Below are positions 29,052-54,213 of a stretch of 64,000 bases of DNA, one piece after another (position 1 is the first letter of the stretch; each line of letters opens with the position of its first letter). The position numbers and the translations under genes are program-made. Under the pieces are notes generated by a model. That model did no database searches. It was not told where the DNA came from and saw nothing but the letters and a program-made list of their open reading frames with translations. The stretch spans positions 106,316-170,315 of the forward strand of contig JBBABX010000001.1 in the NCBI GenBank assembly GCA_041657405.1. The letters run 5' to 3'. This stretch comes from Minisyncoccota bacterium. GTDB lineage: Bacteria > Patescibacteriota > Minisyncoccia > Phycocordibacterales > XYD1-FULL-46-19.

Positions 29052-29186
29052 ATGTCGTTTACATACAAACCCAAAAAAAAGAAAAGAGCTAAAACACATG
29101 GTTTTTTGGCACGAAAAGCAACTACTGCTGGGAAAAAGGTTCTTAAAAGACGAATAGCTAAAAAAAGGTCTAAATTAACTGTTTAG
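29052..29186 (+). CDS. rpmH: 50S ribosomal protein L34
   Basis: MSFTYKPKKKKRAKTHGFLARKATTAGKKVLKRRIAKKRSKLTV; not in ORF track (44 aa); canonical position upstream of rnpA. Confidence 0.85.
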   Translation: MSFTYKPKKKKRAKTHGFLARKATTAGKKVLKRRIAKKRSKLTV

Positions 29187-30296: not shown

Positions 30297-31532
30297 CTAA
30301 TTATTTAAAGAGATAATTCTTATTTTTTTACTATTCCGGTCAATAGCAAAAATCTCATTTTGGTCTTTATTGTATTTTAGATTTATCAAATCACCCAGCA
30401 TCTGATTGTCGGTAATCAAATTAACATTACCATTAGAAGCGTTTATTACCCAAAGATTGTCATCAAACCGAACTTTACCTTGGTACCAATCATCAGGGTA
30501 GTTGGCTTTTGTGATATTCTTAGGCACAGCACAAAAAATCATATCCCCAACCTCATTCCAAACACATTTTTCAGGGAAAGTTGATAAGCTTAAGCGGAAA
30601 GATTTGTCTAGTTTGTAATCGTAAAGATAGGTTGAAATATTATCTAAGGTGTTACGAGAGTAGATTATTTTATTAGCATTCGGCCCAACTAAGGCGAGCA
30701 AACCCTCAATATTTCTTAGAATGGGTTCAAAAGAGCCATTATTGATATTTAAAAAGAAAAGATGGCCTGGAACATCAAAAGATGGTTTGGTTTGAAAAGT
30801 AATATAATTTGGATTGGGCCAACAAATTGACCATTCACTAAGGGGAGAGGAGAAAATTTTCTTTTGGTTGTTTAAATTAAAATCAGCAATATAACCATCT
30901 ATTCCCCCCTGTCTTCCATTTATAACAAAAACCTTGTCTTTTTGAGGGGAAACAGTAAAAGATAAAAGATTATCACTCAAAATATTTGTTTCCAGCTCCT
31001 TTATTTCACCAGTTTTGGTTAATTTGATTAAGCCTGAGGTGTTGTTGAATAAACCACTATTTGAACGGCGTAAAATTAAGCGTAGGCCGTTTTTATCCAA
31101 ACCCCAAACAACTTCCTCAACTCTAGGAAAAGTTGTATTTGTGAGACGATTTAAACCTTCTGATGGGGTATATTCAAAAATATTGCCACTAGGTTTGTCA
31201 AAAATAAAAATTTTAGTAGTGGTTCCTATTTTAAAAGCACTTAAACTCAGTGCGGATAGATTATCAATAGATAAGAATGAGAGATTGTTTTCCGTAGTTT
31301 CCCCTATTAATTTAATAGAATTATCAGAATTCTCACCCTGATTGTCTGGAATATCTGATTCCACATCTTCTTTTTCTAATGAACGGTTGTCAGAGATAGG
31401 AAAAACTGGACCAGGTGATTGTGTTTGAGTTTTTAAAGAGTCTCGGTTTTGAAAGAAAAAGACATAAAAAATAACATCCAAAGTGATAAAGATAATAATT
31501 ATTAAAATAATTAAAAGAGTTTTTTTTGTCAT
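30297..31532 (-). CDS. membrane-anchored extracytoplasmic protein, unknown function (last gene of the T4SS-like operon)
   Basis: N-terminal TM MTKKTLLIILIIIIFITLDVIFYVFFF then a 380-aa soluble domain. Confidence 0.45.
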   Translation of the reverse strand: MTKKTLLIILIIIIFITLDVIFYVFFFQNRDSLKTQTQSPGPVFPISDNRSLEKEDVESDIPDNQGENSDNSIKLIGETTENNLSFLSIDNLSALSLSAFKIGTTTKIFIFDKPSGNIFEYTPSEGLNRLTNTTFPRVEEVVWGLDKNGLRLILRRSNSGLFNNTSGLIKLTKTGEIKELETNILSDNLLSFTVSPQKDKVFVINGRQGGIDGYIADFNLNNQKKIFSSPLSEWSICWPNPNYITFQTKPSFDVPGHLFFLNINNGSFEPILRNIEGLLALVGPNANKIIYSRNTLDNISTYLYDYKLDKSFRLSLSTFPEKCVWNEVGDMIFCAVPKNITKANYPDDWYQGKVRFDDNLWVINASNGNVNLITDNQMLGDLINLKYNKDQNEIFAIDRNSKKIRIISLNN

Positions 31533-31534
31533 TT

Positions 31535-31957
31535 TTAAAGGTTTAGATTAAATTGGACTAAATCTGGATTAATTATATAAAGAATTAAATAAGAAAAGCC
31601 AGCGATTGCTAATCCCCAAAAAGCATCTTTTAGTCTTTTCTTTGCTTTTGATTTGCTTGAGATCACATCAGTCATCATATATTCGAAACCAGCCCAAACA
31701 ATCATAATAACGGCCGCTGAAAAAACTATTACAAAGAATGTTTGGTAAGCTCCCTTAAGATAAGTTGTTAGTTTTATAGGTTCTTTTGCTATTTCTCCGA
31801 TCCCTGTTAAAGCGCTGGGTTCTAGAAGAATATATCCAGTTTTATTTTCTTGCTGTGCGGAAGCTTTAAGAGCCAAAGTTAAGTAACTAAGAAAATATAA
31901 ATAAATCAAACTGTAAAAAAAATTTTTTAATTTAATTTGAATCATTATTAAAGTCAA
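31535..31957 (-). CDS. VirB2/TrbC-like pilin candidate
   Basis: long signal peptide ending ALKASA|QQ; ~105-aa mature part with two hydrophobic helices separated by a basic loop (SSKSKAKKRLKD), the VirB2 topology; sequence family unverified. Confidence 0.4.
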   Translation of the reverse strand: MTLIMIQIKLKNFFYSLIYLYFLSYLTLALKASAQQENKTGYILLEPSALTGIGEIAKEPIKLTTYLKGAYQTFFVIVFSAAVIMIVWAGFEYMMTDVISSKSKAKKRLKDAFWGLAIAGFSYLILYIINPDLVQFNLNL

Positions 31958-32963
31958 TTACCTGCTTATTGAAATTTATTAATAAAGAGCTGATTGCTTT
32001 TTGTGTAGAATTACTATTTGCAACAACTAGATTTATTTTGCTTAAACCCTCCGTCTCTGGTTTATAACGAAAAGTGACTAAAGAATTATCATTTGGTGGG
32101 GTAAATTTTTGATTATTTAATAACCAACTAAATGAAGGTTGTCCAATTTGGTTTAAACCAAAGAAATAAGGTTGAGCTTTGATTGTTATTTCTTGGTTGA
32201 TCAAAGTTAGGTTGTTACTCAAGGCATTATTATAGTCTATTCCCTCGAGCGGCTTTGATTCATAGAAAATAATTTTTGGTGCTTGGGGTTTTATTGATAA
32301 ACTATTTTCGGCTACTAAATTATTAGAAGAATCACTGACTAAAACATTTATTATTTTTTCTGTGAAATCTTTGTTGGCAGAAGTCAAAAAGGTGTTTCGT
32401 CCGATACCAGAAGAATTAGAAACTAAATTTCCATTAATATACCAACGGTAAGAAAGATTTTCTGATAAAGTTTTTTTGCCTGAAGAATTAATGATATTTG
32501 GAATAGCCCAAATTTTGATCAAGCTTTCTGGGGTTGGTAAGGCTTTGCCGCGGTAAAAATTAGGGACTTCCGTGCCGGCTTGCCAAACTAAATTAACTTC
32601 AGCTGGTTCAAAAATTAAAGTTTTTGACATCTGATACTGGTTATTTTTGATGATTATTTTCACTTGATTACTTGTACCAGCTTTTCCAACAAAAAAAGAA
32701 AACTGCTTTTTATTAGTATAAGAATCTTGTAGTTTATTATCTAAATACCAATTAATAAAATTACCCTGAAGATTAAAACCAAAACTTTTTAAAGTTATAA
32801 TAACTCGTTCGCCTGGAGAGGGATTTTCGGGGCGAACTTCGGCAATAAAATTACCCGATGATTCAATTTCTCGGACAGCAAAAACTAAAGTTGGAAAAGA
32901 TATCTGTAGTAAAATGAAAAAGATAAAAATTTTTTTCATACAAGTTTTATTTAATTGCGGCAA
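31932..32963 (-). CDS. secreted protein, unknown function
   Basis: signal peptide MKKIFIFFILLQISFPTLVFA; Asn/Ser-rich. Confidence 0.45.
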   Translation of the reverse strand: MPQLNKTCMKKIFIFFILLQISFPTLVFAVREIESSGNFIAEVRPENPSPGERVIITLKSFGFNLQGNFINWYLDNKLQDSYTNKKQFSFFVGKAGTSNQVKIIIKNNQYQMSKTLIFEPAEVNLVWQAGTEVPNFYRGKALPTPESLIKIWAIPNIINSSGKKTLSENLSYRWYINGNLVSNSSGIGRNTFLTSANKDFTEKIINVLVSDSSNNLVAENSLSIKPQAPKIIFYESKPLEGIDYNNALSNNLTLINQEITIKAQPYFFGLNQIGQPSFSWLLNNQKFTPPNDNSLVTFRYKPETEGLSKINLVVANSNSTQKAISSLLINFNKQVIDFNNDSN

Positions 32964-33372
32964 TTTTATTAAACTTTCCAGTTCCGCTGTTTTTAAAATC
33001 TCCTAAGGCGGTGGCTAAGGCTTGGGCAGCCAAGGGTGAAATGGAACCAGCAACATCTTCAGCATAAGTAATTGCCAATAATATTATAACACTAGAAGTC
33101 CAAGCGGGTAAGCTGTTAATAACGGGAAAAAACTCCAAAAGAAATGACCCTCCCATAGTCAAAGCTTTGTTGGGCTTTGCAAAACTTAGACCTTTTAATT
33201 TAAACCAAAACCAAAAAGTTAAAAAAGACCAAAAATTTATGAAAGGATTTACTAACCAACCAATCGTTCCCACAGAGATAAGATCAATGAGGGCTTGCAG
33301 GCCATCATAAATTAGGGCAACTATTACCATGAAGATCCCGATTATCGGATTTATTCTCAATTTTAACTTCAT
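32947..33372 (-). CDS. small polytopic membrane protein (T4SS-associated)
   Basis: 3-4 TM helices; immediately upstream partner of the VirB4-like ATPase operon segment. Confidence 0.4.
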   Translation of the reverse strand: MKLKLRINPIIGIFMVIVALIYDGLQALIDLISVGTIGWLVNPFINFWSFLTFWFWFKLKGLSFAKPNKALTMGGSFLLEFFPVINSLPAWTSSVIILLAITYAEDVAGSISPLAAQALATALGDFKNSGTGKFNKIAAIK

Positions 33373-33373
33373 T

Positions 33374-35197
33374 TTAAGATAATTTTTGTTGTTGGGTAGC
33401 CGCCAACTCTGCTTTGGCCTTTTTAATTGCTAAAATTTGTGACGGATCGGAAGTGATTATTTGATCTTCGGTATAAGAAGCGATAACCTCAATGGCTACT
33501 CTTTTAAGACCAGCAATAAAAATTCCACGACCAATAGAAGCCTCTAAAAGAAAATACTTTTCTTCCTCGGTTAAATTAAAGGTTTTTTGCACAGCTTCTA
33601 TTGAGGCTGGCGATTGTTTTAATAAGATTTGAATTGAAGAGTTTTGAATAATTGGCGCGCCATATTGTGATTTCATAAAATCTTCCACATCTTGAGTAAT
33701 TGTGGCTACTCCTAGATAATATTTACGTCCTCTTTTTGCTAAAGAATATAAAAAAGAAGCTGTATCTTCTGATTTCATCATCCACCAAGCCTCATCCACA
33801 ACCAAAAGTCTTTTTCGTAAATTGCGACGAATAGAACTCCAAATATGTTGCATTACAATATACATTGCGACTGGCTTGAGCTCATCTTCCATATCTCGGA
33901 TGGAGAAAACCACGAATTTTTTATTGATATCAACATTTGTAGGTCTGTTCAAAAAACCAGCCCAAGTGCCTTGAGTATATTTTAAAAGACGTTGGGCTAG
34001 AGATTCCCCTCCTTCCATTCCTGCCAAAACCAGTTCTAGGTCAGAAAGCAAGGGGGCGGAAACTTTAGTAAAATCTGAATCGGGGGTGATATCTTTAAGG
34101 GCGTAAGTTTCAGAGATGGCATTATCTAGAATAGAATCTTCTTCGGGGCTTAAGCCTCCAAGCATTAAACGAAAAAGACCAACTAAGTTGATAATATTTG
34201 AGCGTAAGATATCAGCTGGGGACTCATCTTCTCTGGGGAAAGGTAGGTCAAAAGGATTAATATGGTGTTCGGAGGTAAGGGAGATGTTAAAATAGCGTCC
34301 CCCAACTGCTTCAGCCAAAAATTCATATTCGCGTTCGGGGTCAAGGACAATGATTTCAGTATCAAACATTAAGCTGCGCAAGATTTCTAATTTAGTAGAA
34401 TAAGATTTTCCAGAACCAGATTTGGCAAAAATGACGGAATTATAGTTTTCCAAAGAAAAACGATCAAATATAACCAAAGATGAGTTGTGTAAATTTCGTC
34501 CAAAAAGAATTCCTTTATTAGAAGTTAAATCAAAAGAAATAAAAGGAAAGAGGCTGGAAAGCGGGGTTGAATTCATTTTATAATTTACATTTAATTGGTC
34601 GGTAGCAAAAGGGATAACACTCTTAAAACCGCTTTCTTGCAAATAGGTGGCAGTTTTAAGATAGATCAATTTTGAATCCAAAATTGATCTAATCTCATTT
34701 TCTATCTTATCCAACTCGTCTTCCTCGTCGCCATAAATAGTTATATAGAGACCAACAGCAAAAATTTTCTCAGTTGCTTGCTGAAGTTGGTCGCGAAGAT
34801 TTTCGATATCGGCTTGCGCGGTGTCAAGTTGGGGGTCGCGAACCATTCCCTTCATTGCTCTTTCTTGGATTTGGCTTTCTACTTCGGCAATTTTCTTTTG
34901 CAAAGCACGCAGAGTGGAGGTAGTATCAAGGGGATGAATAAAAATAGAAACATCAAAGATGGTGTCTAAATTAATAACTGGTGAAAACCATTCTTCCGGT
35001 AAAAAACGAGGATAAGAAATAACATATAAAGTGCGAATAACCTTTCCTCCCAGGCTGATACTTTTAGGGGTGATGCGCAAAGCTGATGGGGCGATAATAT
35101 CTTTTAACTCTAAAACACCCATTTCATAAATATCTTGCGGCATAATAGGCGTGATAATTTCTTTCTTTTTTTCTTTTTTAAAAGGTAGAGATAACAT
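33374..35197 (-). CDS. VirB4/TraC-like type IV secretion ATPase, C-terminal ATPase portion
   Basis: Walker A AKSGSGKSYS followed by VLDPEREY; DEAW Walker B (LLVVDEAWWMM); ORF begins with ATG immediately after the stop of 35198..35839. Confidence 0.75.
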   Translation of the reverse strand: MLSLPFKKEKKKEIITPIMPQDIYEMGVLELKDIIAPSALRITPKSISLGGKVIRTLYVISYPRFLPEEWFSPVINLDTIFDVSIFIHPLDTTSTLRALQKKIAEVESQIQERAMKGMVRDPQLDTAQADIENLRDQLQQATEKIFAVGLYITIYGDEEDELDKIENEIRSILDSKLIYLKTATYLQESGFKSVIPFATDQLNVNYKMNSTPLSSLFPFISFDLTSNKGILFGRNLHNSSLVIFDRFSLENYNSVIFAKSGSGKSYSTKLEILRSLMFDTEIIVLDPEREYEFLAEAVGGRYFNISLTSEHHINPFDLPFPREDESPADILRSNIINLVGLFRLMLGGLSPEEDSILDNAISETYALKDITPDSDFTKVSAPLLSDLELVLAGMEGGESLAQRLLKYTQGTWAGFLNRPTNVDINKKFVVFSIRDMEDELKPVAMYIVMQHIWSSIRRNLRKRLLVVDEAWWMMKSEDTASFLYSLAKRGRKYYLGVATITQDVEDFMKSQYGAPIIQNSSIQILLKQSPASIEAVQKTFNLTEEEKYFLLEASIGRGIFIAGLKRVAIEVIASYTEDQIITSDPSQILAIKKAKAELAATQQQKLS

Positions 35198-35839
35198 TTA
35201 AGTAGTTAAATTAGGAGTTTGATTTTCTCCCGGGTTATACATTTTAAAATAAAGTTCAATCATTTCTTCGGTTCCTAAAATATCTGCGCGCAAACCAACT
35301 CGTGACAGTCCTCCCTTAACAACATTGATTCGTTGATTTAATTGTTCTACGTTTTCATCAAAATCGTTGTTTAAGGTAGTTTTTTGGGGTTTTTTGTTAA
35401 CCATGCTAGTTATTTTTGAAATAATTCCTTCCCCACCCTTTTTAATAATCGGCGGAGTATAAGGTATTACAATAAAAAAACTTTTAGTCATAACATTATT
35501 TCTTTCGGTAAAAACTCTTATAAATTCCATATATTCCTTAATTTGGATTTTCAGCAACTCGTTTGTTTGTTCGATCATCCGTTGCTCAAGAATGGAAATA
35601 TAAGGTTGAATGTCCAAACGTCTTGATTGAATATATATTTGAACGAGAAAATCAAGCGAATTTAGAAAGTTTTGATAACCAAAAAGGATTGCTTTTTTTT
35701 CGTCTTCTGATTTTAGACCAAAATTTAAAGATGAAACCATTAAAACAGAACGCATGGAATTATCTTTAAGAATCAGAACGCCGTTGCGAATCTCTTTAAT
35801 AGGCACAAAATCTTGAGTTGTTTTTCTTCTTTCGGGCAT
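35198..35839 (-). CDS. VirB4 N-terminal (CagE_TrbE_VirB-like) domain encoded as a separate ORF
   Basis: pattern ...DFVPIKEIRNGVLILKDNSMRSVLMVSSLNFGLKSEDEKKAILFGYQNFLNSL... resembles VirB4 N-terminal domains; its TAA stop abuts the ATG of the ATPase ORF. Confidence 0.5.
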   Translation of the reverse strand: MPERRKTTQDFVPIKEIRNGVLILKDNSMRSVLMVSSLNFGLKSEDEKKAILFGYQNFLNSLDFLVQIYIQSRRLDIQPYISILEQRMIEQTNELLKIQIKEYMEFIRVFTERNNVMTKSFFIVIPYTPPIIKKGGEGIISKITSMVNKKPQKTTLNNDFDENVEQLNQRINVVKGGLSRVGLRADILGTEEMIELYFKMYNPGENQTPNLTT

Positions 35840-35844
35840 TTTAT

Positions 35845-36282
35845 TTATTGTTCATCATTATTCAACCTTTTAACATCCAAACTCCAAGCAAGTTCATTCA
35901 GTTTACTTTCCGATAAACGTGGTAATTTTAGGTTTGCAGCTTGGTCAGAGTTAACAATATTCGGAGTGTTTTTGGGGATTTTTGAAGTATTTTTTTCGTC
36001 TTTTTTCCAAATATAAAGTTTGCTGCCCAAGGAATATTTGACAAAAGCTTCTAAAACTACAATAAATGGTTGGCCGTTATATTTTATAAATGCTAGAGCT
36101 AGGGCTAAGGCGGCTACTCCAGCAATAGGAATTATTTTTAGGATAAAAGGTAGGGGTAGCCAGACATAAAGAATAAAACAAATTCCTCCTCCACCAACTA
36201 AGTACAAAAATTGTTTAAAGGTAAGTGGTCCAAAAATTTTATCCTCCATCTCAATAAATTGTGGTATTTGAAATTGTTGCAT
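35845..36282 (-). CDS. VirB3-like small membrane protein candidate
   Basis: two TM helices, ~145 aa, positioned just upstream of VirB4 as in many T4SS loci. Confidence 0.4.
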   Translation of the reverse strand: MQQFQIPQFIEMEDKIFGPLTFKQFLYLVGGGGICFILYVWLPLPFILKIIPIAGVAALALALAFIKYNGQPFIVVLEAFVKYSLGSKLYIWKKDEKNTSKIPKNTPNIVNSDQAANLKLPRLSESKLNELAWSLDVKRLNNDEQ

Positions 36283-36360
36283 AGATTTCCCTTATAATTA
36301 TAACTTAGTTCAACTTTAAATAAAACAACTCGCTTTATTCAGCGAGTTGTTAATAAAAAT

Positions 36361-36897
36361 TTAAGTTATTGGCTCACGATAGGGATCATGCCTCGGAGGC
36401 GTTTCTGTTGTTTTTTCTGGGGTGGTGGCGGTTGATTTGTCAGTCACTTCTACTTTTTCTCGTGGTAATCCATAATTAGAAGTTGTTTTTTGAGAAAAAG
36501 TATCTGCAGTCGAAATCTCCTCTTTTTTTTCTGGTTGACTTGTCTCAAGAGATTCAGGCTTGGCAGATGTGTTTTTAGGTTGGACAGTCGCTTCTTTCAT
36601 TGCAGTTCTTATTTTATTCAAAATTTCCTGATTTAATTCATAAGTAACGAGATTGATCACATCAGTAGAAAGCCCAGTCTCTTTAGTTAGGGTATTATTA
36701 AAATCATTTGGTTTAATAATACCCACAATAAATAAACGAACTACAATGGCCATTTTCCCAATCTGATCAATATTTAAATGGTGTTTTTTTCCAATTTTAA
36801 TTAGAAGGGAGGCGGTTTCTTCGGAATCAAGAATTTCCACTACATTTTCTGGTAAATTACTTTTTGCTTGTTTGATTTGTTCCTTGTTTAAATTCAT
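36361..36897 (-). CDS. hypothetical protein with Thr/Pro/Glu-rich C-terminus
   Basis: ORF within the T4SS-like operon. Confidence 0.4.
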   Translation of the reverse strand: MNLNKEQIKQAKSNLPENVVEILDSEETASLLIKIGKKHHLNIDQIGKMAIVVRLFIVGIIKPNDFNNTLTKETGLSTDVINLVTYELNQEILNKIRTAMKEATVQPKNTSAKPESLETSQPEKKEEISTADTFSQKTTSNYGLPREKVEVTDKSTATTPEKTTETPPRHDPYREPIT

Positions 36898-36915
36898 AGA
36901 TATTAAATCAATTTA

Positions 36916-39291
36916 TTACCAATCGGTTGACCCTCTCCCAGCTCTCATGTATTCATAACCAGGAGAAGTTGAGTCACCTATTATATTTGTCTTAATTGTT
37001 GCCAGCAATGTATCAAGCTTATCCTCATTTATTATGGCGTTCAAGCTGCTTGGCCCTAAGTTAACACTAACCTCAACTCTTTCCAGAACATCATCGGGAA
37101 GTTTGGCGATTTCATTGGGAAGAATTTTTTTATCTCTAATTATCGTAGCAACATCTGCTTTTGTGGGAGCTTTTTTCAGGTCTTCGGCTATACTCTTGAG
37201 TTCTTCTTTTCTGTTTTCCTCTTTTTCCTCTTTTTCTTCTTTTGTTTTTGTTTTTTTGTCTTCCTTTAATTTTTTCCGAGCGTCTTTGTCGGTGCCCAAG
37301 ATATTAAAACCAGAAACTAGGCCAGCTTTTGATATTGTTGATGAAACATAATCATTAATACTCATAAGAGGCCTTGGGACAGATGGTTGACCTTTGAAAT
37401 CAAGGGTATCAGCTACCCACTTTTTGCCTTCTTTTATTTTTTCTTTTCCGGTTTCATAGGTTTTTGTTACTCCTCCAGGAACGGCAGTTGCTCGCTCTAT
37501 TCTTCGGGTGCTTGTTTTTAAAGCCTTGGTTAAAACATTAGGTCTTTCGCTTAATTTTGTTCCTGCCCACTGATCAATCTTGACAGAGCCTTTTCTGATC
37601 GCTTTGCCTCCGAGATTTAATCCTGCTGAACCATATCTTACCATAGAGGCCTGAGACTTGCCGGCCCATTTCTTAGAAAAGTCAAGCCCCTTAGCGCCGA
37701 ATTTTTGAGCAATAAAAATACAAGAAGCAATCATTGCCATCACAATCAGTTGTATCATTGTAATCTTCATTAAACCGGTTCCAATTCCAGCGTCTTGGGC
37801 TAAGGTGGATAAGCCCTTATCTCCTAGAATTTTAAAAACAGCAAAAAGCGGAATAAGAAAGGCGGGAGCAAAGAAAGATTGTTTTAGTAAAGCGTCTTGC
37901 CATTTTGTGTAAGAATCTTTAAACATTGGAATGAGTCTAAGTGTGAGACCGATTGGTGAGAAAACATAAACAAATAAAAGTGTAACAGTTCGAATAAGAA
38001 ACATAATAGACCCGGCAAGTAAGACAAAAGAGGCCATTAAGATAATAATAATGCTACCCAAAGAGCCTATGACAATTTGAAAAAATCCAAGTCTTGTTGT
38101 TGTGACCTCGTCTCCTTCATAATCATCAATTTCATCAATTGGCACAACGTGGGCGCTTAGATCCAGCTTGCTTACTAAAGCTGTTCCAATATTTGCGTTC
38201 ACTCGGTCTAGAATCCAAGCTTCGTTGGCTTGGGGGTCGTAACTCATTCGAGAATAAAACTCATAAGCTATAACATTACTAGCATCAATTACTACTCTTA
38301 CTAGAAAACCACTAAAATTTACTAGTAAAGCAATTATAATAACCTCTACAATTAATTTTTTACTATTACCACCAATAGAGATATCAAAAATAACACTTAT
38401 GGCAATATAGAGCAGAATAAAAATGAAAGATAGATTGGCTAAATCACGCATCACTTTCCACGCAGCATCAATTCCTGTAGATGCTATAAGGCTTTTAAAG
38501 CTTACAATGGAAATATAAATAGAAAGGTCAAAGATAGAACTAGAAATCCACAAAATAGTGCCAAATATTTTTAAGATGAGAGTAGAAATACCAGCGGCAA
38601 TAGATAGAACACAAGCCATCGGATTAATTCCAAACCAGTAAAGACATTGGTTTTTATTTTCTTCAATTTCCTTAATAATTTCTTCATTGGCTTCATTTGC
38701 AATTTCTTGTCTTCCTGCAATATGTTCAAAATATTCTTCGTCTGTTCCTTCCCAATACTCTGGTATTGCAATATCTCTCTCTTCCGGATTGGTTCTGATT
38801 AATTCCTGAAATCTATTCATAGCATATCTGTTTTCTTCTGTTGTTCCGATTCCAGGTTTTTGAAAACTAATACCGTTGTCTATTGCTTCTTGGCGTGCCA
38901 GCAGATAGTCTTTTGTGGTCCTATCCCCTCTTTCTAGAAGGAGATCAATGGTTGATCTTTGTTCAGGGGTCCATGGGACTTGTTCTATTTCCTCTTTAAT
39001 TTCATTTAGTTTTCTGTCGTAATAATAAAACTTCTCATCAAGTTCATTGTTTGTTGTGTTGCCAATACCACCAGTTACCCGAGTCCAAAAACTGTCGTCA
39101 CTATCTATTCCTGAAGGCAACTTTTCCATATTGTTTACAAGCGTACCTAATTGAGCAGTGAGTTTTTCCTGTTCAGTCCTAGTATCTGGTATTGGACCTT
39201 GGGCTGAAATCTTAGAAGGAAGACTATAAAAAACGACAATTCCTAAAAGAATAAAAAGTAGAATCTTGTTTATCTTCAATATAGACTTCAT
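36916..39291 (-). CDS. VirB6/TrbL-like polytopic membrane protein with N-terminal extracytoplasmic domain and C-terminal Lys/Glu-rich tail
   Basis: signal/TM then ~200-aa soluble domain, then 8 or more hydrophobic helices; C-terminal KKLKEDKKTKTKEEKEEKEENRKEELK. Confidence 0.45.
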   Translation of the reverse strand: MKSILKINKILLFILLGIVVFYSLPSKISAQGPIPDTRTEQEKLTAQLGTLVNNMEKLPSGIDSDDSFWTRVTGGIGNTTNNELDEKFYYYDRKLNEIKEEIEQVPWTPEQRSTIDLLLERGDRTTKDYLLARQEAIDNGISFQKPGIGTTEENRYAMNRFQELIRTNPEERDIAIPEYWEGTDEEYFEHIAGRQEIANEANEEIIKEIEENKNQCLYWFGINPMACVLSIAAGISTLILKIFGTILWISSSIFDLSIYISIVSFKSLIASTGIDAAWKVMRDLANLSFIFILLYIAISVIFDISIGGNSKKLIVEVIIIALLVNFSGFLVRVVIDASNVIAYEFYSRMSYDPQANEAWILDRVNANIGTALVSKLDLSAHVVPIDEIDDYEGDEVTTTRLGFFQIVIGSLGSIIIILMASFVLLAGSIMFLIRTVTLLFVYVFSPIGLTLRLIPMFKDSYTKWQDALLKQSFFAPAFLIPLFAVFKILGDKGLSTLAQDAGIGTGLMKITMIQLIVMAMIASCIFIAQKFGAKGLDFSKKWAGKSQASMVRYGSAGLNLGGKAIRKGSVKIDQWAGTKLSERPNVLTKALKTSTRRIERATAVPGGVTKTYETGKEKIKEGKKWVADTLDFKGQPSVPRPLMSINDYVSSTISKAGLVSGFNILGTDKDARKKLKEDKKTKTKEEKEEKEENRKEELKSIAEDLKKAPTKADVATIIRDKKILPNEIAKLPDDVLERVEVSVNLGPSSLNAIINEDKLDTLLATIKTNIIGDSTSPGYEYMRAGRGSTDW

Positions 39292-43419: not shown

Positions 43420-44116
43420 TTTTATCTTTTTTAAAAGTGATAACAATCTTATATTCTGGACCAATAACACCTGTTTTTTGTAAGAAATCGTTTAATTTGG
43501 TTGTCAAATTAATTATTGTTCCCGTTTCATTAAGATAAGTTTGTCCGCTTTGTAGGGCTAATACGGGTTCATCTAGGGCTTTTTCCATTTGTCCAGCTAA
43601 AAAGGAAAGTTTTTGTAAAGAAACAACCAAATCTTTTTGGAAGACCGCTGTTTCGGCGGGTGCTGGTAATTTTATTAATCTGTTAATGATTGAATCAAAA
43701 GTTAGACGGGCAGAAACTATATCTTTGATCAAAATTGGGTCATTATTATCCATTGCTTCTAACATTATTCGAACCTCGTGTTTGCGATTACCAGAAAGAG
43801 GCTTAAGAATATCAATTAAATTTTGGACATATGTTTGCAAATCATCTTCTGTAACTGTCGCCAACACGTCTAATTCAATTTCTTCTTCAAATAAACTAGT
43901 GACATTAAAATTTTGTAAAGCCCCCTTTTTTTCTAGATTATCTTCTACAATATTTCGCAAATTGCGATTTTTTTCTATAATCTCGGCCAAAATTTCTGCT
44001 TCATATTTTTCGCGTTGAGCACGATTTTTAAAACCAACATACCACAAAACCCCCAAAGTTATAATCAGGAGTATAACTATTAAAAATATTATTTTGCGAC
44101 TTGGTAATCGATTCAA
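43409..44116 (-). CDS. bitopic membrane protein (VirB8-like architecture, unverified)
   Basis: N-terminal TM KIIFLIVILLIITLGVLWYVGF + ~200-aa soluble domain; first gene of the minus-strand operon. Confidence 0.4.
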   Translation of the reverse strand: MNRLPSRKIIFLIVILLIITLGVLWYVGFKNRAQREKYEAEILAEIIEKNRNLRNIVEDNLEKKGALQNFNVTSLFEEEIELDVLATVTEDDLQTYVQNLIDILKPLSGNRKHEVRIMLEAMDNNDPILIKDIVSARLTFDSIINRLIKLPAPAETAVFQKDLVVSLQKLSFLAGQMEKALDEPVLALQSGQTYLNETGTIINLTTKLNDFLQKTGVIGPEYKIVITFKKDKNEI

Positions 44117-44216
44117 AATTATAATTCTATTATACCGTTTGTTGAGCTGTTTGGTAAATGTTTTTTCATCAAAAAAAGTGGATAAAAAAGACGGATTGAA
44201 TTATGATAGAATAGAA

Positions 44217-45074
44217 ATGTTTAAATTTTTCGAATTAAATAAATTAAGATTTTTTTTTAGGTTGAGTTATCAAAGTTTTTTGCTTTTTATCATAACCTTA
44301 CTGTTTTACTGGCCGTTTGTTTCCATGGGTTTTGTTTTTGAAAAAAATGTTGCCGAAGGCGAAGAAGATTTAAGTATAAAAAATTTACAGATTGTTCTCA
44401 ACCAGGACGAAAAGACGCAAGTCGCTGAGTCCGGCGCCGGCTCGCCTGGTCTGGAAACCAATTTTTTTGGTGCCAGGACTCGTGGGGCATTAACTCGTTT
44501 TCAACGTCTAAACAGTATTTCTGGTGAATATGGCTTGGTGGGACCTAAAACTAGGTTGGCTTTAAATAGAAAACTAGCCGAAACATATTTTGCCAAAACC
44601 TCAACTTCTACAAGCGAATTCTCTGGCCAACTGTTGGAAATTCAAAAGCCCTTTGTTTTGAAGCTTCCTTTTGGGGTGCGTGGTAATGCTACTCGTTTAG
44701 CCGACAAAAAATCACCTTATCTTAAGCGTTTAGAAAAAAAAGAAGAATCTGGCAATAAAAAACTGGAAATTGTTGGTAAGCCAAAAATTGTCTCCCTATC
44801 GCCTACCAGAGGTGTCTATGGTACCCGTGTGACGATTAAGGGTGAAAATTTCACGAGTGTTGGCAATACAATTTATACCGGCTATAGTATTTTAAAAAAT
44901 ATTTCTTCCTCAGACAAAAAAACATTGACTTTTACTGCTAACGCTTTTGGAACCGAATATCAGCAATCTCGTGGTCTAATTAATTATTTTAAGCCATTTT
45001 CAATTCCATTCTTGGTTTATGTTAAAAATACTAATGGCCAAAGTAATAGTTTAATATTTAATTATCAGTTTTAA
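44217..45074 (+). CDS. secreted peptidoglycan-binding domain protein (PG_binding_1) with IPT/TIG-like C-terminal domain
   Basis: FGARTRGALTRFQRLNSISGEYGLVGPKTRLAL matches the PG-binding-1 repeat; start moved from 44094 (which overlaps the divergent gene) to MFKFF..., giving a signal-anchor. Confidence 0.55.
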   Translation: MFKFFELNKLRFFFRLSYQSFLLFIITLLFYWPFVSMGFVFEKNVAEGEEDLSIKNLQIVLNQDEKTQVAESGAGSPGLETNFFGARTRGALTRFQRLNSISGEYGLVGPKTRLALNRKLAETYFAKTSTSTSEFSGQLLEIQKPFVLKLPFGVRGNATRLADKKSPYLKRLEKKEESGNKKLEIVGKPKIVSLSPTRGVYGTRVTIKGENFTSVGNTIYTGYSILKNISSSDKKTLTFTANAFGTEYQQSRGLINYFKPFSIPFLVYVKNTNGQSNSLIFNYQF

Positions 45075-46072
45075 TGAAAAAACGTTCAACTCAACTCTTT
45101 TTTTTACTTATGGCCATTGTTTTGTTTATGGTCGGCTGTCCTGTTGCTAAAGCGCAAGTGGGGCAAATTCCCTTTGGTGGTTTGATTGTTAAAGTGTTGC
45201 CTTGCTTGGTTAGTGGCAATATCATGATTACCCACACGTCAGTAGCTGGCTCGCCAATAGTTATGTATCAGCCAGGGGTTAGTAGGCTTTATTCATATTT
45301 TCAATTAACACCTGGCAATTGGATGCTTGGTAATACCTTGGGGATGGCGCCTTGTTTGCAACTTGTTCCTTTTCCACCTTTTGTCATCAATTTAGGCACC
45401 TATCCTTTAATTTCTATGGTAGGAACTTCGGGTGCGGGGATGACGGCTGGATCGGGCGCTGATGTTGGTGGTTTGAATAATGACGACTTTGGCAGTCTTA
45501 GTAGGGCTGATAATGAGGATATTACACCAGCGGTTTATGAATCAATAGAGCCTTGTGGTGAAAGTGATAACACAACTTCGTCTTATATTATTGCTAATGA
45601 GGGTTGGCGAAACTCTCCATATTTTGATTCATTAGGAAATCGCACGATTGGAGTGGGTCACCTTATTACTGGCGATGAGCCTTTTAATGCCAATCAGATT
45701 TTAACCAACGATCAGGTGGCGGCTTTGTATGAGCAAGATTATATTAGGGCAAAAGAGGAAGCCATTTTGGCCGCCGCCGCTCACGGAGTTGATTTTGATT
45801 CCTTGTCAGACACTAGGCAGGCGGTTTTGATAGACATGTCCTTTAATATGGGAGCACAAGGAGGAGGAGGCTTGGCGGGTTTTCATAATATGTGGAGTGA
45901 AATTGCTAAAGATAATTGGAACGGGGCGGCGAATGAAATTTTAGACAGCCAATACGGTAGTCAATTAAAAGAACGTTCTCGTCGCAACGCTGAAGCTATG
46001 CGAACTGATGATCGTTCAATTCTTGATAAACACATTAATTCCGATTTTCAAGCTTGGCAATTTTGTGAATGA
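45074..46072 (+). CDS. secreted phage-type lysozyme (GH24/T4-lysozyme-like) domain protein
   Basis: signal peptide; EGWRNSPYFDSLGNRTIGVGHL matches T4 lysozyme EG..Y.D..G..TIG.GH catalytic region. Confidence 0.65.
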   Translation: MKKRSTQLFFLLMAIVLFMVGCPVAKAQVGQIPFGGLIVKVLPCLVSGNIMITHTSVAGSPIVMYQPGVSRLYSYFQLTPGNWMLGNTLGMAPCLQLVPFPPFVINLGTYPLISMVGTSGAGMTAGSGADVGGLNNDDFGSLSRADNEDITPAVYESIEPCGESDNTTSSYIIANEGWRNSPYFDSLGNRTIGVGHLITGDEPFNANQILTNDQVAALYEQDYIRAKEEAILAAAAHGVDFDSLSDTRQAVLIDMSFNMGAQGGGGLAGFHNMWSEIAKDNWNGAANEILDSQYGSQLKERSRRNAEAMRTDDRSILDKHINSDFQAWQFCE

Positions 46073-46093
46073 ACTTAATTTTTTAATTTCAAT

Positions 46094-46900
46094 TTAGTTT
46101 TTAAATCGTTTTGTTTTTAAAAGGCATAACCAGTCAGGTAATTTTAGGTCTTCAGCGCGAAGATCGGGGTTCAAGTTGCAAAGCTGCCAATTTTCTGCTG
46201 GCAATTTGAGATGATTTCCTAGTTTTTTGCGTTTTTGGGAAAAACCTTGTCGTAATAAATCAAAGAATCTAGATTCTTCTTCAGCTTGGAAATTATTTCT
46301 GGAGATATTATGAATTAAGAGAATAGCTGAATCTACTTTTGGTTTAGGGACAAAGGCTCCAGATGGCACGGTCTTGATATACTTTGGTTCACCAAAGGTT
46401 TTAACTGAAAGTGATAAAAGACTTTCTTTTTCATCGCGGGCGACAATTCTTCTGGCGACTTCTTTTTGGAGCATTAATACCATTTTTGTCGGCTGGATTT
46501 TTTCTTCGCTCAAAAATTTTCGGATAACTTGACCGGTAATATAATATGGAATATTGGCGATTAATTTGTAGTTTATCTTTAGTTTTTTAGTTTTTGGAGA
46601 TGAGAAAGAAGATAAAAGAGTAGAAAAATTTGTTTTTAAAATATCGCCATAAATAAGAATAAATTGCTTATCCTTAATTTGGTTTGCAAACTTTTTAGAT
46701 AAAAATTCAATTAAGCGGTTATCTTTTTCCACCGCGATGACTCGAGCACCGACGGCAAACAAGGCTTCGGTTAATATCCCCTGTCCCGGACCAATTTCCA
46801 AAACCAATTCATTTTTATGCAGATCAGCGGACTTGATCATTTCTTTTATTGCTGATTTAGATTTTAGCCAATTTTGTCCAAGTGTTTTTTTCGCTTTCAT
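46094..46900 (-). CDS. rsmA: 16S rRNA (adenine1518/1519-N6)-dimethyltransferase
   Basis: LGQNWL..., LEIGPGQGILTEAL SAM-binding motif. Confidence 0.9.
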   Translation of the reverse strand: MKAKKTLGQNWLKSKSAIKEMIKSADLHKNELVLEIGPGQGILTEALFAVGARVIAVEKDNRLIEFLSKKFANQIKDKQFILIYGDILKTNFSTLLSSFSSPKTKKLKINYKLIANIPYYITGQVIRKFLSEEKIQPTKMVLMLQKEVARRIVARDEKESLLSLSVKTFGEPKYIKTVPSGAFVPKPKVDSAILLIHNISRNNFQAEEESRFFDLLRQGFSQKRKKLGNHLKLPAENWQLCNLNPDLRAEDLKLPDWLCLLKTKRFKN

Positions 46901-46919
46901 TGTATCTCGTTTATATTTT

Positions 46920-48839: not shown

Positions 48840-48896
48840 GGACTAGTAGATACTATCATAATATAATTGAAACATATAAATTCTAATTTTTATTTT

Positions 48897-49337
48897 ATGG
48901 CAGAAAATTTTTTAGTTAGTAATAAAATGATTGAAGCGGAAATCGTGGAATTACAAAAAAAAATTGAAGAAAAACGTAATCAATTGGAAAAACAAAGTGG
49001 CATTATGGAAGAAAAAAGTCTTGTCCGTGAAGCGTTCCAAGAAATGATTGCCAAAAAGATAGAAGAGGAACCAGAAACAACCCCGGCTTCAAAAGTTGAT
49101 TTAGTTGGTGAGCCTCAAAAAACTTCATGGATAAATGTTAGCGCTAGTTATCTGGATCGCTTGGATGAAAAAACAATATCAAAATTAAATATTTATATTG
49201 ATGAAATCAACCAACAAGGTATTGTTCGCACCTTAAAAAAAGCAATAACCGATGAACCTTTTGTTATTGATGCATTACATGACATTCTAGTTGACAAACT
49301 TTATGAAGAATTAAAAAATCGAGGGTTGATTAAATGA
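48897..49337 (+). CDS. hypothetical coiled-coil protein, translationally coupled to the coupling-ATPase gene
   Basis: ORF-track start 48867 is TTG; ATG (MAENFLV) at 48897; its stop lies 1 nt before the next ATG. Confidence 0.4.
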   Translation: MAENFLVSNKMIEAEIVELQKKIEEKRNQLEKQSGIMEEKSLVREAFQEMIAKKIEEEPETTPASKVDLVGEPQKTSWINVSASYLDRLDEKTISKLNIYIDEINQQGIVRTLKKAITDEPFVIDALHDILVDKLYEELKNRGLIK

Positions 49338-49338
49338 T

Positions 49339-51708
49339 ATGAACAAGTCAGTATCTTTAATTTTCTTTCTAATAATTACTACTGTTGCCTTAACAATTGC
49401 CTTTTTGTTATTTTTTTGGTGGCGTCGTCAACGTTTAAATAATCTTGATTTGAAAATTTTAGTCATAAAGATTCCCCACCATGACAAAGAAAATGGTGAA
49501 AAAGATTTTATTAAACAAATTAACTTATCTGAGCAATTATTTGTTGCGCTATCTTCTATTGGTCGCCCCTATGTTTTTGAAGCTTCTGTTTTAAACACGG
49601 GCGAAGAAATTCGTTTTTATTTGGCAGTGCCAAGATCTTCTTTGGAATATGCTCGTAAAACTGTTCAAGGTTTTTTCTTAGATGCTCAAGTTGAGGAAGC
49701 TTCTGACTATACGATTTTTGAGACTGGTAGCCAAGCCGCTGCTGGTTATCTGACTTTGGACAAACATTTTGTTTTGCCGGTTGCTTCTTATCGCGAATCA
49801 GAAGCGGACGTTTTTTCACCGATTCTTTCAACTTTATCAAAGTTGGCTGAAAATAGTGAGGGAGCCTCTGTCCAAGTGGTTATTTCGCCAATTGGTGAGA
49901 TATCTAAAAAAGAAATAATGAATATTCTAGGAAAATTACGTGAAGGCAAAACCTTGAAAGAGTTAACAGACACCAGTCCATCTCTCAAAAAGGTAGGTAA
50001 AGAGCTTGAAAAAATGATTTTAACGAATAATGGTGGTGATGAAAAAGAAACTAAATTAGCGGACGAAGAAGCGGTAAAAGCTGTTCAGCTTAAAATTTCC
50101 AAAACCTTGATGTCGGTTAATGTCAGGATTATTGCCGCTGCGGCGACTAAAGGTCGAGCAGAAGATATTCTGATGTCTGTTGCCTCTTCTTTTAGCAAAT
50201 TAGCCTCACCAGTTCGTAACTCATTTAAAATTGTTAAACCTAAGAAGATTAATAAACTTATTTTCCACTATGTTTTTAGAGAGGCAGATGATAGCCAAGC
50301 CATTATTTTAAATGTGGAAGAGTTAGCTAGTATTTTTCATTTACCAACTGAGACTTCTGATGTTCCAAATGTCACTTGGTTGCGAGCAAAAGAAGCACCA
50401 CCGCCAGAAAATTTGCCGACAAAGGGTTTAATATTGGGTCAAAGTGTTTTTCGTGGAGTGGAAAAAACAATTTGTGTAACAGAAGAAGACCGTCGTCGTC
50501 ATACTTATATTGTCGGACAGACCGGAACTGGTAAGTCAGTTTTTATCCAAAATATGGCGATGCAAGATATGTATGAAAACAGGGGTTTTTGTGTAATTGA
50601 TCCGCACGGTGAATTGGTAGATAAAATTTTGAATTTTGTGCCAGTCAATCGGATTGATGATGTGATTATTTTTGATCCAGGAGACCGCAGTCGGCCGTTG
50701 GGGCTTAATATGCTTGAATACAATTTGTCGCGACCAGAAGAAAAAACCTTCATCGTTAACGAAATCCAAGCGATTTTTAACCAGCTTTTTATGAAAGAAA
50801 CAATGGGGCCGCAATTTGAAAAATATATGCGTAATACCCTACTTCTTTTAATGGATGATTTCAAAAATGAACCAACTACTTTAATGGAAGTTCCGCGTAT
50901 CTTTACTGATGAAGAATTTCGTCGTCGTAAACTTTCTAATTGCACCACCCCCCTGGTTATTGATTTTTGGACCAAAGAAGTGCCCAAGACGACTGGCGAA
51001 CAAAGCCTCGGTAACTTTGCGCCTTACATTACATCAAAATTTGACGGTTTTATTTCTAATGATTATTTGCGTCCAATTATTGGCCAAACCAAATCATCTT
51101 TTAACTTTCGTCAGGCAATGGATGAGAATAAAATTATCTTAGTTAATTTGTCTAAAGGCAAATTAGGTGATTTAAATTCGGCACTTTTGGGGATGCTTAT
51201 TGTTGGAAAGCTTTTGCAGGCGGCTTTGTCACGAGTTGATATCATTGATGAAAAATCACGGCAGGATTTTTATCTTTATATTGATGAATTTCAGAATTAC
51301 ACAACAGATTCTATCGCCACAATTTTGTCAGAGGCACGTAAATACCGTCTGAATTTGACGATTGCTCATCAGTTTATTGCGCAACTGAAGGACAATATTC
51401 GTGAATCTGTTTTTGGAAATGTTGGCAATTTGATTGCTATGAGAGTTGGTTCTCCTGACGCTGAAATTTTAGTTAAGCATTTCGGTCCGATTTTTAATGA
51501 GCGCGACTTGATCGGTATTGAAAATTTGAATGCTTATGCCAAAATTTTGATTAATGGTCAGCCAACAGAACCGTTTAATATTAAATTTAAGTGGGCTGAA
51601 GGAGGTTCCACCGAAGTCCGTGAACAAATGAAGGAATTATCACGTTTAAAATATGGCAATGATTTGCAAGAAGTAGAGAATGATATTATAAAAAGACTCA
51701 GAAATTAA
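49339..51708 (+). CDS. TraD/VirD4-like type IV coupling protein (T4CP) ATPase
   Basis: N-terminal TM; Walker A VGQTGTGKSV followed by CVIDPHGEL (cf. TraD GATGTGKS ... IFDPNGD); Walker B LYIDEFQNY. Confidence 0.65.
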   Translation: MNKSVSLIFFLIITTVALTIAFLLFFWWRRQRLNNLDLKILVIKIPHHDKENGEKDFIKQINLSEQLFVALSSIGRPYVFEASVLNTGEEIRFYLAVPRSSLEYARKTVQGFFLDAQVEEASDYTIFETGSQAAAGYLTLDKHFVLPVASYRESEADVFSPILSTLSKLAENSEGASVQVVISPIGEISKKEIMNILGKLREGKTLKELTDTSPSLKKVGKELEKMILTNNGGDEKETKLADEEAVKAVQLKISKTLMSVNVRIIAAAATKGRAEDILMSVASSFSKLASPVRNSFKIVKPKKINKLIFHYVFREADDSQAIILNVEELASIFHLPTETSDVPNVTWLRAKEAPPPENLPTKGLILGQSVFRGVEKTICVTEEDRRRHTYIVGQTGTGKSVFIQNMAMQDMYENRGFCVIDPHGELVDKILNFVPVNRIDDVIIFDPGDRSRPLGLNMLEYNLSRPEEKTFIVNEIQAIFNQLFMKETMGPQFEKYMRNTLLLLMDDFKNEPTTLMEVPRIFTDEEFRRRKLSNCTTPLVIDFWTKEVPKTTGEQSLGNFAPYITSKFDGFISNDYLRPIIGQTKSSFNFRQAMDENKIILVNLSKGKLGDLNSALLGMLIVGKLLQAALSRVDIIDEKSRQDFYLYIDEFQNYTTDSIATILSEARKYRLNLTIAHQFIAQLKDNIRESVFGNVGNLIAMRVGSPDAEILVKHFGPIFNERDLIGIENLNAYAKILINGQPTEPFNIKFKWAEGGSTEVREQMKELSRLKYGNDLQEVENDIIKRLRN

Positions 51709-54028: not shown

Positions 54029-54211
54029 ATACTGAATGGGGTCTTTAATGCCCTTTGGATTATTGCCCTACCTTTTGTTGGTATCTATCTATTATTGAAA
54101 TGGTTTGTTGTGGGAATAACAAAAGAAACTGGTAATAGGATTATAAAAATAGTGGGTGGAGCAATTGCTGTCGGAATAGTTGGATATATCTCAACTTTCT
54201 TTCTCAATTAA
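53999..54211 (+). CDS. small 2-TM membrane protein at the island edge (tentative)
   Basis: ATG ORF, 70 aa, hydrophobic (WIIALPFVGIYLLLKWFVVGI..., GGAIAVGIVGYISTFFL). Confidence 0.3.
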   Translation: MYDNGSVGEQILNGVFNALWIIALPFVGIYLLLKWFVVGITKETGNRIIKIVGGAIAVGIVGYISTFFLN

Positions 54212-54213
54212 AT

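Follow-up and report, generated by a model that had tools for sequence, protein, structure and literature searches.

According to the abstract and main sections of Quinonero-Coronel et al. (2025, Microb Genom; PMC12102498), the VirB4 proteins of Patescibacteria form a monophyletic clade nested in the MPF-FATA type IV secretion systems (T4SSs). TrsD, PrgI, VirB6 and VirB2-like pilins are encoded near virB4, with VirB1 homologues associated with virB4 in Paceibacteria; relaxases are almost absent, and the systems lie near dnaA, dnaN, rnpA and ksgA, for which a gene-dosage effect was suggested. The main results of Wang et al. (2023, Cell; PMC10633639) show that epibiotic growth requires a T4SS of Saccharibacteria (SEML1_0006-0019) together with its pilins; two reviews, in the parts that concern T4SSs (PMC12857230, PMC11665869), describe its function as unknown and mention uptake as well as effector delivery. 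Here, we describe a T4SS locus at positions 30297-51708 of a 64-kb stretch of DNA (hereafter, the window) from a Minisyncoccota bacterium. Almost certainly, this locus is a chromosomal, vertically inherited T4SS of the Patescibacteria clade, derived from monoderm (MPF-FATA) systems and laid out in the Paceibacteria arrangement beside the chromosomal replication origin (oriC).

The locus shares with the Patescibacteria-clade systems, as set out in the main sections of PMC12102498, a separate TrsD, a PrgI/VirB3 protein, a probable VirB6-like protein, a VirB2-like pilin and VirB1-type hydrolases near virB4, together with the lack of a relaxase and of outer-membrane parts and the dnaA/dnaN/rnpA/ksgA neighbourhood; nothing essential differs. 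Since its TrsD split, pilin, missing relaxase and near-origin position match PMC12102498 and PMC10633639, the system is already known rather than new, and the initial annotation of this DNA reproduced published knowledge in both its finding and its interpretation. The secretion core consists of the following five genes.

33374-35197, minus strand: VirB4 ATPase body, 607 amino acids (aa)
35198-35839, minus strand: TrsD-like protein, 213 aa, the N-terminal domain of VirB4 as an open reading frame (ORF) of its own
35845-36282, minus strand: PrgI/VirB3-like protein with two transmembrane segments (TMs)
36916-39291, minus strand: VirB6-like polytopic protein, 791 aa, with a signal peptide, an ectodomain of ~190 aa, a TM core and a charged C-terminal tail
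31535-31957, minus strand: VirB2-like pilin

These genes belong to a run of eleven co-directional minus-strand ORFs that extends from 44116 down to 30297, with spacers of -14 to +78 nucleotides. Coordinates, order and topology were taken from an ORF map and a hydropathy scan of the window, and public gene calls on identical DNA yielded the same products (1375, 791, 178, 145, 213, 607, 335, 136 and 411 aa); all eleven genes are uninterrupted in the map and in the public calls. The 14-kb operon that the initial annotation had drawn was thus recovered ORF by ORF in position, order and strand, and the topologies it had assigned (bitopic, secreted, polytopic, two-TM, pilin, anchored) agree with the hydropathy scan. 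By consensus match only, a sigma-70-like promoter (-35/-10) lies at 44158-44129, ahead of the first gene, and a terminator-like hairpin at 30280-30257, after the last. A further terminator-like hairpin, likewise a consensus match only, is found on the minus strand at 36351-36324 between the 178-aa gene and prgI, with an 11-bp stem and a T-rich tail. This internal hairpin may attenuate transcription or divide the operon into two transcription units.

The assignment of 33374-35197 to VirB4 is carried by several independent profiles, with Pfam matches judged against curated cut-offs (gathering scores) and complemented by NCBIfam, PDB profile searches and hhalign. Pfam reports P-loop_TraG (1.4e-27), AAA_10 (2.5e-11), DUF87 and TraC_F_IV. 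The best solved relative is a Gram-positive VirB4 (PDB 4AG5, 7.6e-43), followed by TrwK (1e-9), and the protein aligns to aa 215-772 of PrgJ from pCF10 at 6e-41. Its Walker A (KSGSGKS) and Walker B (LLVVDEAW) motifs are readable in the translation. Among its best 120 homologues, the close ones have 76-94% identity and are all ~605 aa long; most carry no source name, and those that do are all called Paceibacteria, Vogelbacteria or Patescibacteria. The genome is Paceibacteria/Vogelbacteria-like. One related record, L097 (GCA_964388635.1), encodes a VirB4 identical to that of the window. Many related metagenome-assembled genome records (L004-L006, L008, L013, L016 and other CAY.../CAZ... accessions) bear the title 'uncultured Candidatus Saccharibacteria bacterium'; in VirB4 and synteny they match Paceibacterota/Vogelbacteria loci, and the titles appear generic or wrong.

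Directly upstream of this ATPase body, the TrsD-like ORF matches NCBIfam VirB4_plasma (positions 101-233, 7e-11), the CD1110 VirB4 model (positions 2-118, 1.3e-6) and TrsD (2.4e-6). Because it corresponds to a fragment of the models, its scores fall below the full-length NCBIfam cut-offs, as expected. The precomputed Pfam assignment is PF26593 (TraC-like), and the ORF is collinear with aa 36-93 of PrgJ. At the junction, the TAA stop codon occupies 35198-35200 and the ATG at 35197 follows directly. A VirB4 lying in two ORFs, TAA then ATG, might be taken for a decaying remnant in which the gene has been broken by a stop codon. Yet a separate TrsD-like ORF adjoins VirB4 in 79 of 80 related species, both ORFs are strongly conserved (median identity 53% for TrsD and 73% for VirB4), the Walker motifs are intact and the eleven operon genes are uninterrupted. 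The same TrsD plus VirB4 organization characterizes pGO1-type systems and, in the main sections of PMC12102498, is reported for 2,272 Patescibacteria proteins. Since the two-ORF VirB4 is conserved, we consider the remnant refuted, its probability being close to nil. The split noted in the initial annotation is, hence, the TrsD plus VirB4 organization and not a lesion. Stop-codon recoding (genetic code 25, UGA) was also rejected as its cause: the stop codon is TAA, long ORFs are normal in translation table 11 and the split is conserved.

Two of the three remaining core proteins are identified above curated cut-offs. The protein annotated as VirB3-like combines a Pfam PrgI match (1.9e-11, 44.8 bits against a cut-off of 27) with the two TMs of the hydropathy scan. 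The pilin candidate, first described as VirB2/TrbC-like, matches Pfam T4SS_pilin (PF18895; 1.2e-6, 28.9 bits against a cut-off of 26.6) and has the topology of a hairpin, with a signal peptide and two hydrophobic helices that have a basic loop between them; NCBIfam adds an Mbov_0395 pilin-like match at 0.012. The VirB6-like call stood in part. Polytopic topology (six to nine predicted TMs among orthologues) and placement support it, while its homology comes down to four weak signals: the NCBIfam CD3337/EF1877 mobilome membrane protein (1.1e-4, below the curated cut-off), Pfam TrbL/VirB6 in 3 of 31 orthologues (best 1.3e-3), PrgH of pCF10 by hhalign (Prob 22%, E 9.5e-4) and TrwI of R388 over profile positions 243-433 (E 6.3, not significant on its own). 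The match to PrgH was the sole signal when nine Paceibacteria profiles were compared by hhalign with 16 pCF10/Tn916 proteins, and a PDB profile search of the candidate gave no significant match. The sequence points to a probable VirB6-like channel protein.

The genomic setting places the operon next to the replication origin, in agreement with the initial annotation. The left flank carries yidC, rnpA, rpmH (29052-29186), dnaA and dnaN, so that the operon ends 1.4 kb from dnaA. The dnaA-dnaN spacer contains three near-consensus DnaA boxes, and a perfect DnaA box lies upstream of dnaA. No clean origin signal was found in the GC skew over the window; the origin call is based on dnaA, dnaN, rpmH, rnpA and yidC together with the DnaA boxes. 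Beyond the first operon gene, a divergent plus-strand pair (44094-45074 and 45074-46072) is followed by ksgA (RrnaAD, 2e-51 in Pfam), pcrA (UvrD, 4e-88), a small ORF and a 789-aa ATPase.

This setting recurs across related genomes. Screening a single genome from each species yielded 596 relatives of VirB4, of which the best 80 loci were used; all are from Paceibacteria, and many of their contigs end early, which limits the counts that follow. The recurring order is pcrA-ksgA-[variable divergent exported genes]-bitopic protein-large secreted protein-VirB6-like-soluble protein-PrgI-TrsD-VirB4-(small TM protein)-immunoglobulin (Ig)-like protein-pilin-propeller-yidC/rnpA-dnaA-dnaN. TrsD is present in 79 of the 80 loci, the Ig protein in 78, PrgI in 75, the propeller in 65, the pilin in 62, the VirB6-like protein in 58, dnaA in 54 and ksgA in 40. 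The median identity across these species is 73% for VirB4, 60% for DnaA, 53% for TrsD and 43% each for DnaN and YidC, making VirB4 (33374-35197) the most conserved protein of the neighbourhood, above the replication initiator DnaA (27505-28875). The synteny comparison that the initial annotation had called for, hence, places the system in the same housekeeping-gene setting in dozens of species, and, judged by sequence comparison, the locus is a vertically inherited part of the chromosomal core and not a mobile element.

These data also bear on whether the locus could be an ordinary conjugative element, that is, a plasmid or an integrative and conjugative element (ICE) with a relaxase located beyond the window. 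VirB4, a coupling protein, VirB3, a pilin and a hydrolase are the usual parts of a conjugation system, and genes for a serine recombinase and for replication proteins are present at 58-60.5 kb. Against this, the T4SS genes sit between dnaA-dnaN-yidC-rnpA and ksgA-pcrA in the same order in dozens of species, VirB4 is more conserved than DnaA, and the region with the recombinase, 6 kb past the coupling protein, appears to be an insertion of its own in comM. Pfam scans of essentially all ORFs of at least 100 aa in the window found no relaxase, VirB11 or VirB7/9/10, as the initial annotation had claimed, and relaxases number only 109 in 3,035 Patescibacteria genomes in the main sections of PMC12102498. 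On synteny and the absence of a relaxase from the 64 kb, we reject the ICE or plasmid reading, which is close to refuted and very improbable. A PilB-type assembly ATPase (T2SSE 7e-118, with an MshEN domain), a component of a type IV pilus or competence pilus, is encoded on the plus strand at 17702-19414, at a distance of 11 kb from the T4SS. It is the sole T2SSE-family ATPase of the window and is PilB-like, not a VirB11.

The comM-like gene itself (53330-54028, minus strand) comprises only the C-terminal two-thirds, with Mg_chelatase profile positions 108-207 and Mg_chelatase_C, and its product begins midway through the AAA+ domain. The adjoining ~10 kb (54000-64000) contain an AAA_14/DUF4143 ATPase (55870-57294), the serine recombinase (58016-59104), a Phage_rep_O-like gene (59840-60526), a PD-(D/E)XK protein (62695-63309) and several orphan ORFs, as well as a LOOT RNA (Rfam RF03000; 62522-62642, minus strand; 67.2 bits against a gathering score of 46.4) inside the putative element. 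This region has the appearance of a mobile element that inserted into comM, and it is unrelated to the T4SS. Elsewhere in the window, a membrane protein of the Phage_holin_4_2 family (2.9e-32) is encoded at 9243-9632 on the minus strand amid housekeeping genes.

Among better-known systems, the MPF-FATA systems (Prg/Pcf of pCF10 and Trs of pGO1) share with this locus the VirB4-PrgJ similarity (6e-41), the nearest structure (4AG5), the PrgI family, cell-wall hydrolases, the TrsD plus VirB4 split of pGO1, a coupling protein matching CD1115/PcfC-like models and the lack of VirB7/9/10. In contrast to them, the present locus lacks a relaxase, accessory relaxosome genes and an LPXTG adhesin, has no PrgL/TcpC-type VirB8 detectable by hhalign and is a chromosomal core locus rather than a mobile element. 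It also has a VirB2-like pilin, which is lacking in Gram-positive systems and is a distinguishing trait of the Patescibacteria systems. From the diderm VirB/D4 systems (MPF-T) it differs in that VirB7/VirB9/VirB10 and VirB11 were not found in the window. The T4SS of Southlakia epibionticum, as characterized in the main results of PMC10633639, is likewise chromosomal, origin-proximal and Gram-positive-like, with pilins inside the cluster, no relaxase and a peptidase or lysozyme nearby. Southlakia, however, belongs to another class of Patescibacteria (Saccharibacteria), has six divergent pilins against the one in the window, and no coupling protein was recognized in its cluster; in these results, function was tested only in Southlakia.

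The right-hand part of the locus and its flank contribute candidate wall hydrolases and a type IV coupling protein (T4CP).

44094-45074, plus strand: exported protein with a PG_binding_1-like segment and an IPT/TIG domain
45074-46072, plus strand: exported T4-type lysozyme
48867-49337, plus strand: small cytoplasmic coiled-coil protein, translationally coupled to the T4CP by an ATGA overlap
49339-51708, plus strand: VirD4/TraD-type T4CP, 789 aa, with one N-terminal TM, ~350 aa of unknown domain and then a P-loop domain
52119-53144, plus strand: LysM-LysM-M23 peptidoglycan endopeptidase adjoining the T4CP

The divergent lysozyme, to which a VirB1-like function had been ascribed, matches Phage_lysozyme above the cut-off (8.3e-9, 36.3 bits against 22.3) and has the catalytic E/D/T spacing of T4 lysozyme (E, +9 D, +15 T) in NEGWRNSPYFDSLGNRTIGVGH. 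For its partner, annotated as a peptidoglycan-binding protein, the TIG match is sound (2.2e-6) while the PG_binding_1 match is weak (0.021); the true start of this gene is probably downstream of 44094, and the protein was found in 10 of the 80 loci and in close relatives. The endopeptidase (Peptidase_M23 1.2e-29, LysM 2.3e-22) adjoins the T4CP in close relatives too and, from its domains, is a possible accessory wall hydrolase. The coiled-coil protein has no family match in Pfam; it co-occurs with the T4CP in eight related loci.

The ATPase proposed to be a TraD/VirD4-like coupling protein matches two Pfam T4CP families above their cut-offs, TrwB_AAD_bind (5.8e-6, 25.9 against 20.5 bits) and T4SS-DNA_transf (6.6e-6, 25.7 against 20.1 bits), and scores 22.0 bits for TraG-D_C, equal to its 22-bit cut-off. 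NCBIfam adds SXT_TraD (7e-14) and a CD1115 VirD4-like model (7e-12), PDB profiles match only TrwB (1.1e-3), and the Walker A (GQTGTGKS) and Walker B (YLYIDEFQ) motifs are readable in the translation. A T4CP lies within 12 genes of virB4 here, as in only 148 of the 5,713 T4CP homologues counted in the main sections of PMC12102498. The order pcrA-small ORF-T4CP-M23 is kept only in close relatives (T4CP identity of at least 62%) and was not seen for more distant T4CP homologues.

The intact T4CP, with its Walker motifs, its position 12 genes away and its coupled partner gene, is an argument for an exporter of effectors or hydrolases. In this scenario, the T4CP recruits proteins and the VirB4/VirB6 channel passes them to the surface or the interior of the host, which they remodel or permeabilize, and the several peptidoglycan hydrolases around the locus would fit. 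Protein export was also suggested in the main text of Wang et al. (PMC10633639), since the Southlakia cluster has neither a relaxase nor coupling proteins. Conversely, no candidate effectors with T4SS signals were identified, and all the hydrolases, as well as the giant secreted protein described below, carry Sec signal peptides, so that no T4SS is needed for their export. The T4CP linkage is, moreover, lineage-specific, and the Southlakia T4CP is reported as non-essential in the main sections of PMC12102498. Export of this kind is, in our estimate, a tentative possibility.

The opposite direction, an import machine, would use the T4SS and its pilus to supply host DNA, nucleotides or macromolecules to a cell unable to make nucleotides. 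ComB of Helicobacter pylori and the archaeal Ced system provide a precedent for import, as both are relaxase-less, non-conjugative T4SS derivatives; ComB is a diderm system, Ced uses CedA/CedB, and the present locus has no specific sequence similarity to either beyond P-loop ATPase matches. The absence of a relaxase from the window agrees with import, and the wall-cutting modules could open the way to host contents. The T4CP weakly matches the Ced DNA-translocating ATPase CedD in NCBIfam (1.3e-4), but this is generic P-loop similarity, far below the cut-off. No ComEA/ComEC-like uptake component was seen within the window, whose one gene of this kind is the truncated comM-like gene at 53330-54028, and the sequence gives no direction of transport. 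A T4CP is encoded here, whereas we know of no VirD4 coupling protein in ComB-type uptake systems. Import is favoured by the authors of PMC12102498 and PMC11665869, in the parts that address function, because comEC is dispensable and the T4SS essential in Southlakia. On this evidence, import is conceivable yet has the odds against it.

The remaining large products of the operon are extracytoplasmic.

39292-43419, minus strand: secreted multidomain giant protein, 1375 aa from ATG, with a signal peptide, a LAS-like domain, 12-residue repeats, a core and a C-terminal beta-rich region
42550-42972, minus strand: hedgehog/LAS-type zinc-peptidase-like module of the giant protein (aa ~150-290), by motif and profile
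41260-42432, minus strand: ~32 diverged 12-residue repeats of the giant protein (aa 330-720)
40225-41097, minus strand: conserved Cys-containing core domain of the giant protein (aa 775-1065), by hhalign
31932-32939, minus strand: secreted protein with a signal peptide and three tandem Ig-like domains, 335 aa from ATG (the '343-aa protein')
30297-31532, minus strand: membrane-anchored extracytoplasmic TolB-like beta-propeller with an N-terminal TM, 411 aa, the last operon gene

The giant, 411-aa and 343-aa proteins had been described as lacking obvious homologues, which did not hold: homologues of all three occur throughout Paceibacteria. PDB profiles match the 411-aa protein to TolB propellers (best 2.1e-5) and the triple-Ig protein, which has three invariant Trp residues ~100 aa apart, to the Ig-like protein Hoc (8e-5) and phage decoration proteins, while the giant protein belongs to a large family through its core. 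This core is common to all proteins encoded directly upstream of the VirB6-like gene; the giant subgroup aligns with the typical family at Prob 98.6% (hhalign, E 8.7e-16), with nearly invariant N, G, C, C and TPG positions. The family counts 4743 representatives at 50% identity with E<=1e-3, or 3744 with E<=1e-10; most carry no source name, and every named one is called hypothetical. The core has no match in Pfam, NCBIfam or PDB. An AlphaFold2 (AF2) model of a typical member, built from a 26-sequence alignment, is mostly helical, with a mean confidence (pLDDT) of 52.6; Foldseek found no PDB match for it at E<=0.001, and the rank of 15 taken by TrwJ/VirB5 (E 3.1) is meaningless.

Outside the core, the giant protein varies greatly. 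Its positional orthologues, from 47 loci, range from 300 to 1350 aa and bear variable lectin and Ig modules (F5/8 type C in six; also Ig-like, fn3 and lysozyme). Pfam sees only MgtE_N-like repeats in the giant protein itself (7e-11). The 12-residue repeats give autocorrelation peaks at lags 12, 24, 36 and 48, and no tandem repeat was found in this region at the DNA level. Within the LAS-like module, H73 and D81 are invariant in our alignment (A7) and H122, in an HWH motif, is nearly so; its 17 PDB profile matches are without exception N-domains of Sonic or Indian hedgehog, with the LAS zinc site aligned, at E values of 0.6-1 that are not individually significant. One relative matches Pfam HH_signal at 0.01, and phmmer found nothing with the LAS region alone. 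In relatives, the module is fused to a pilin, stands alone or takes the place of a lysozyme domain, as in L088. The pilin fusion in L003 (13180-14148) joins a signal peptide, a pilin hairpin, a Gly-rich linker and a LAS-like domain (SSHYEGRAVDI...HWH) in a single ORF, and similar fusions occur in L017, L034, L048, L050, L064 and L066, from other Paceibacteria. Such a distribution fits a wall-hydrolase module. The triple-Ig protein, the TolB-like propeller, the core upstream of VirB6 and the LAS-like module are not named in the abstract and main sections of PMC12102498. These domain-level observations (LAS-like shuffling onto pilins, the core family, the Ig and TolB parts) are leads only, given their sub-threshold or positional evidence. 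It is a bold and rather unlikely proposal that the Paceibacteria T4SS, with its own extracellular toolkit of core family with lectin and Ig modules, swapped LAS-like module, triple-Ig protein and propeller, forms a wall-cutting pilus tip that breaches the host cell wall, with the T4SS as a feeding conduit.

Three further operon products complete the locus.

43409-44116, minus strand: bitopic membrane protein with one N-terminal TM, 235 aa from TTG, the first operon gene
36361-36897, minus strand: soluble protein without a signal peptide, 178 aa, whose first ~100 aa are conserved and whose tail is disordered
32947-33372, minus strand: small polytopic membrane protein, 127-141 aa, with three to four hydrophobic segments

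Public callers choose a later start for the bitopic protein (215 aa). Most of the full-length loci that we inspected in relatives have a bitopic protein of 230-350 aa as this first gene, and 15 of 46 contain TSP3_bac repeats. It had been given a VirB8-like architecture; neither Pfam and PDB profiles nor hhalign to PrgL (TcpC-type) and Tn916 Orf13 gave a VirB8 signal for the protein or its family, and a single-sequence AF2 model was unusable (pLDDT 46.7). On present sequence evidence, 'VirB8-like' describes an architectural resemblance only. VirB8 was not found in most Patescibacteria either, according to the main sections of PMC12102498. The 178-aa protein, left as a hypothetical in the initial annotation, has homologues throughout Paceibacteria and was detected in 39 of the 80 loci, with a positional equivalent in most; it has no TM near its N terminus and one borderline internal hydrophobic window (aa 43-61), and no family match was found in Pfam, NCBIfam or by hhalign to the pCF10/Tn916 proteins. 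The small polytopic protein, detected in 27 of the 80 loci, likewise has no family match in Pfam, NCBIfam or hhalign and is not pilin-like.

Considering these data, we propose a model for how the machine may work. TrsD/VirB4 hexamers would dock via PrgI on the VirB6-like translocon and, driven by ATP, extract the pilin from the membrane for polymerization into a pilus or conduit. This structure would cross the cell's own wall, opened by the hydrolases (lysozyme, LAS-like, LysM-M23). The fast-evolving secreted protein encoded upstream of VirB6, with its core and lectin, Ig or peptidase modules, might serve as the host-binding, wall-cutting distal element, while the triple-Ig protein and the anchored TolB-like propeller could scaffold the extracytoplasmic part. 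The machine probably serves contact with a host bacterium rather than conjugation. Less assured are the further suggestions that the T4CP feeds exported proteins or DNA into the machine, which we regard as doubtful, and that the machine imports host macromolecules, which we would not expect with any greater confidence.

Several points weigh against this explanation. VirB6 homology is weak (best E ~1e-4, below curated cut-offs), and no VirB8 homologue was detected. The T4CP adjoins the locus only in close relatives and may fall outside the machine, because the Southlakia T4CP homologue is non-essential in the account of PMC12102498's main sections. The LAS assignment combines a motif with sub-threshold matches (E 0.01-1), and the core AF2 model is of low confidence (pLDDT 52.6) and has no structural match. 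The roles of the giant, Ig, propeller, 178-aa and 141-aa proteins are positional inference, pilus formation is predicted only, and essentiality is extrapolated from one Saccharibacterium to the Paceibacteria T4SS. Nevertheless, profile matches, synteny and the published T4SSs agree with the view first put forward in the initial annotation, a monoderm-type, relaxase-less system with a probable role in host interaction rather than conjugation. Taken as a whole, identity, mechanism and host-contact role form an explanation in which we have good confidence.

In conclusion, the window contains a clean, complete example of the Paceibacteria T4SS arrangement rather than a novel type of system. Patescibacteria, which live attached to other microbes, account for a large part of bacterial diversity. 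Their origin-proximal T4SS is essential in the only species in which this has been tested and is the foremost candidate for the interface through which they obtain what they need from a host. The conservation of VirB4, the modular distal protein, the pilin-peptidase fusions and the conserved Ig and TolB parts offer concrete experimental targets.

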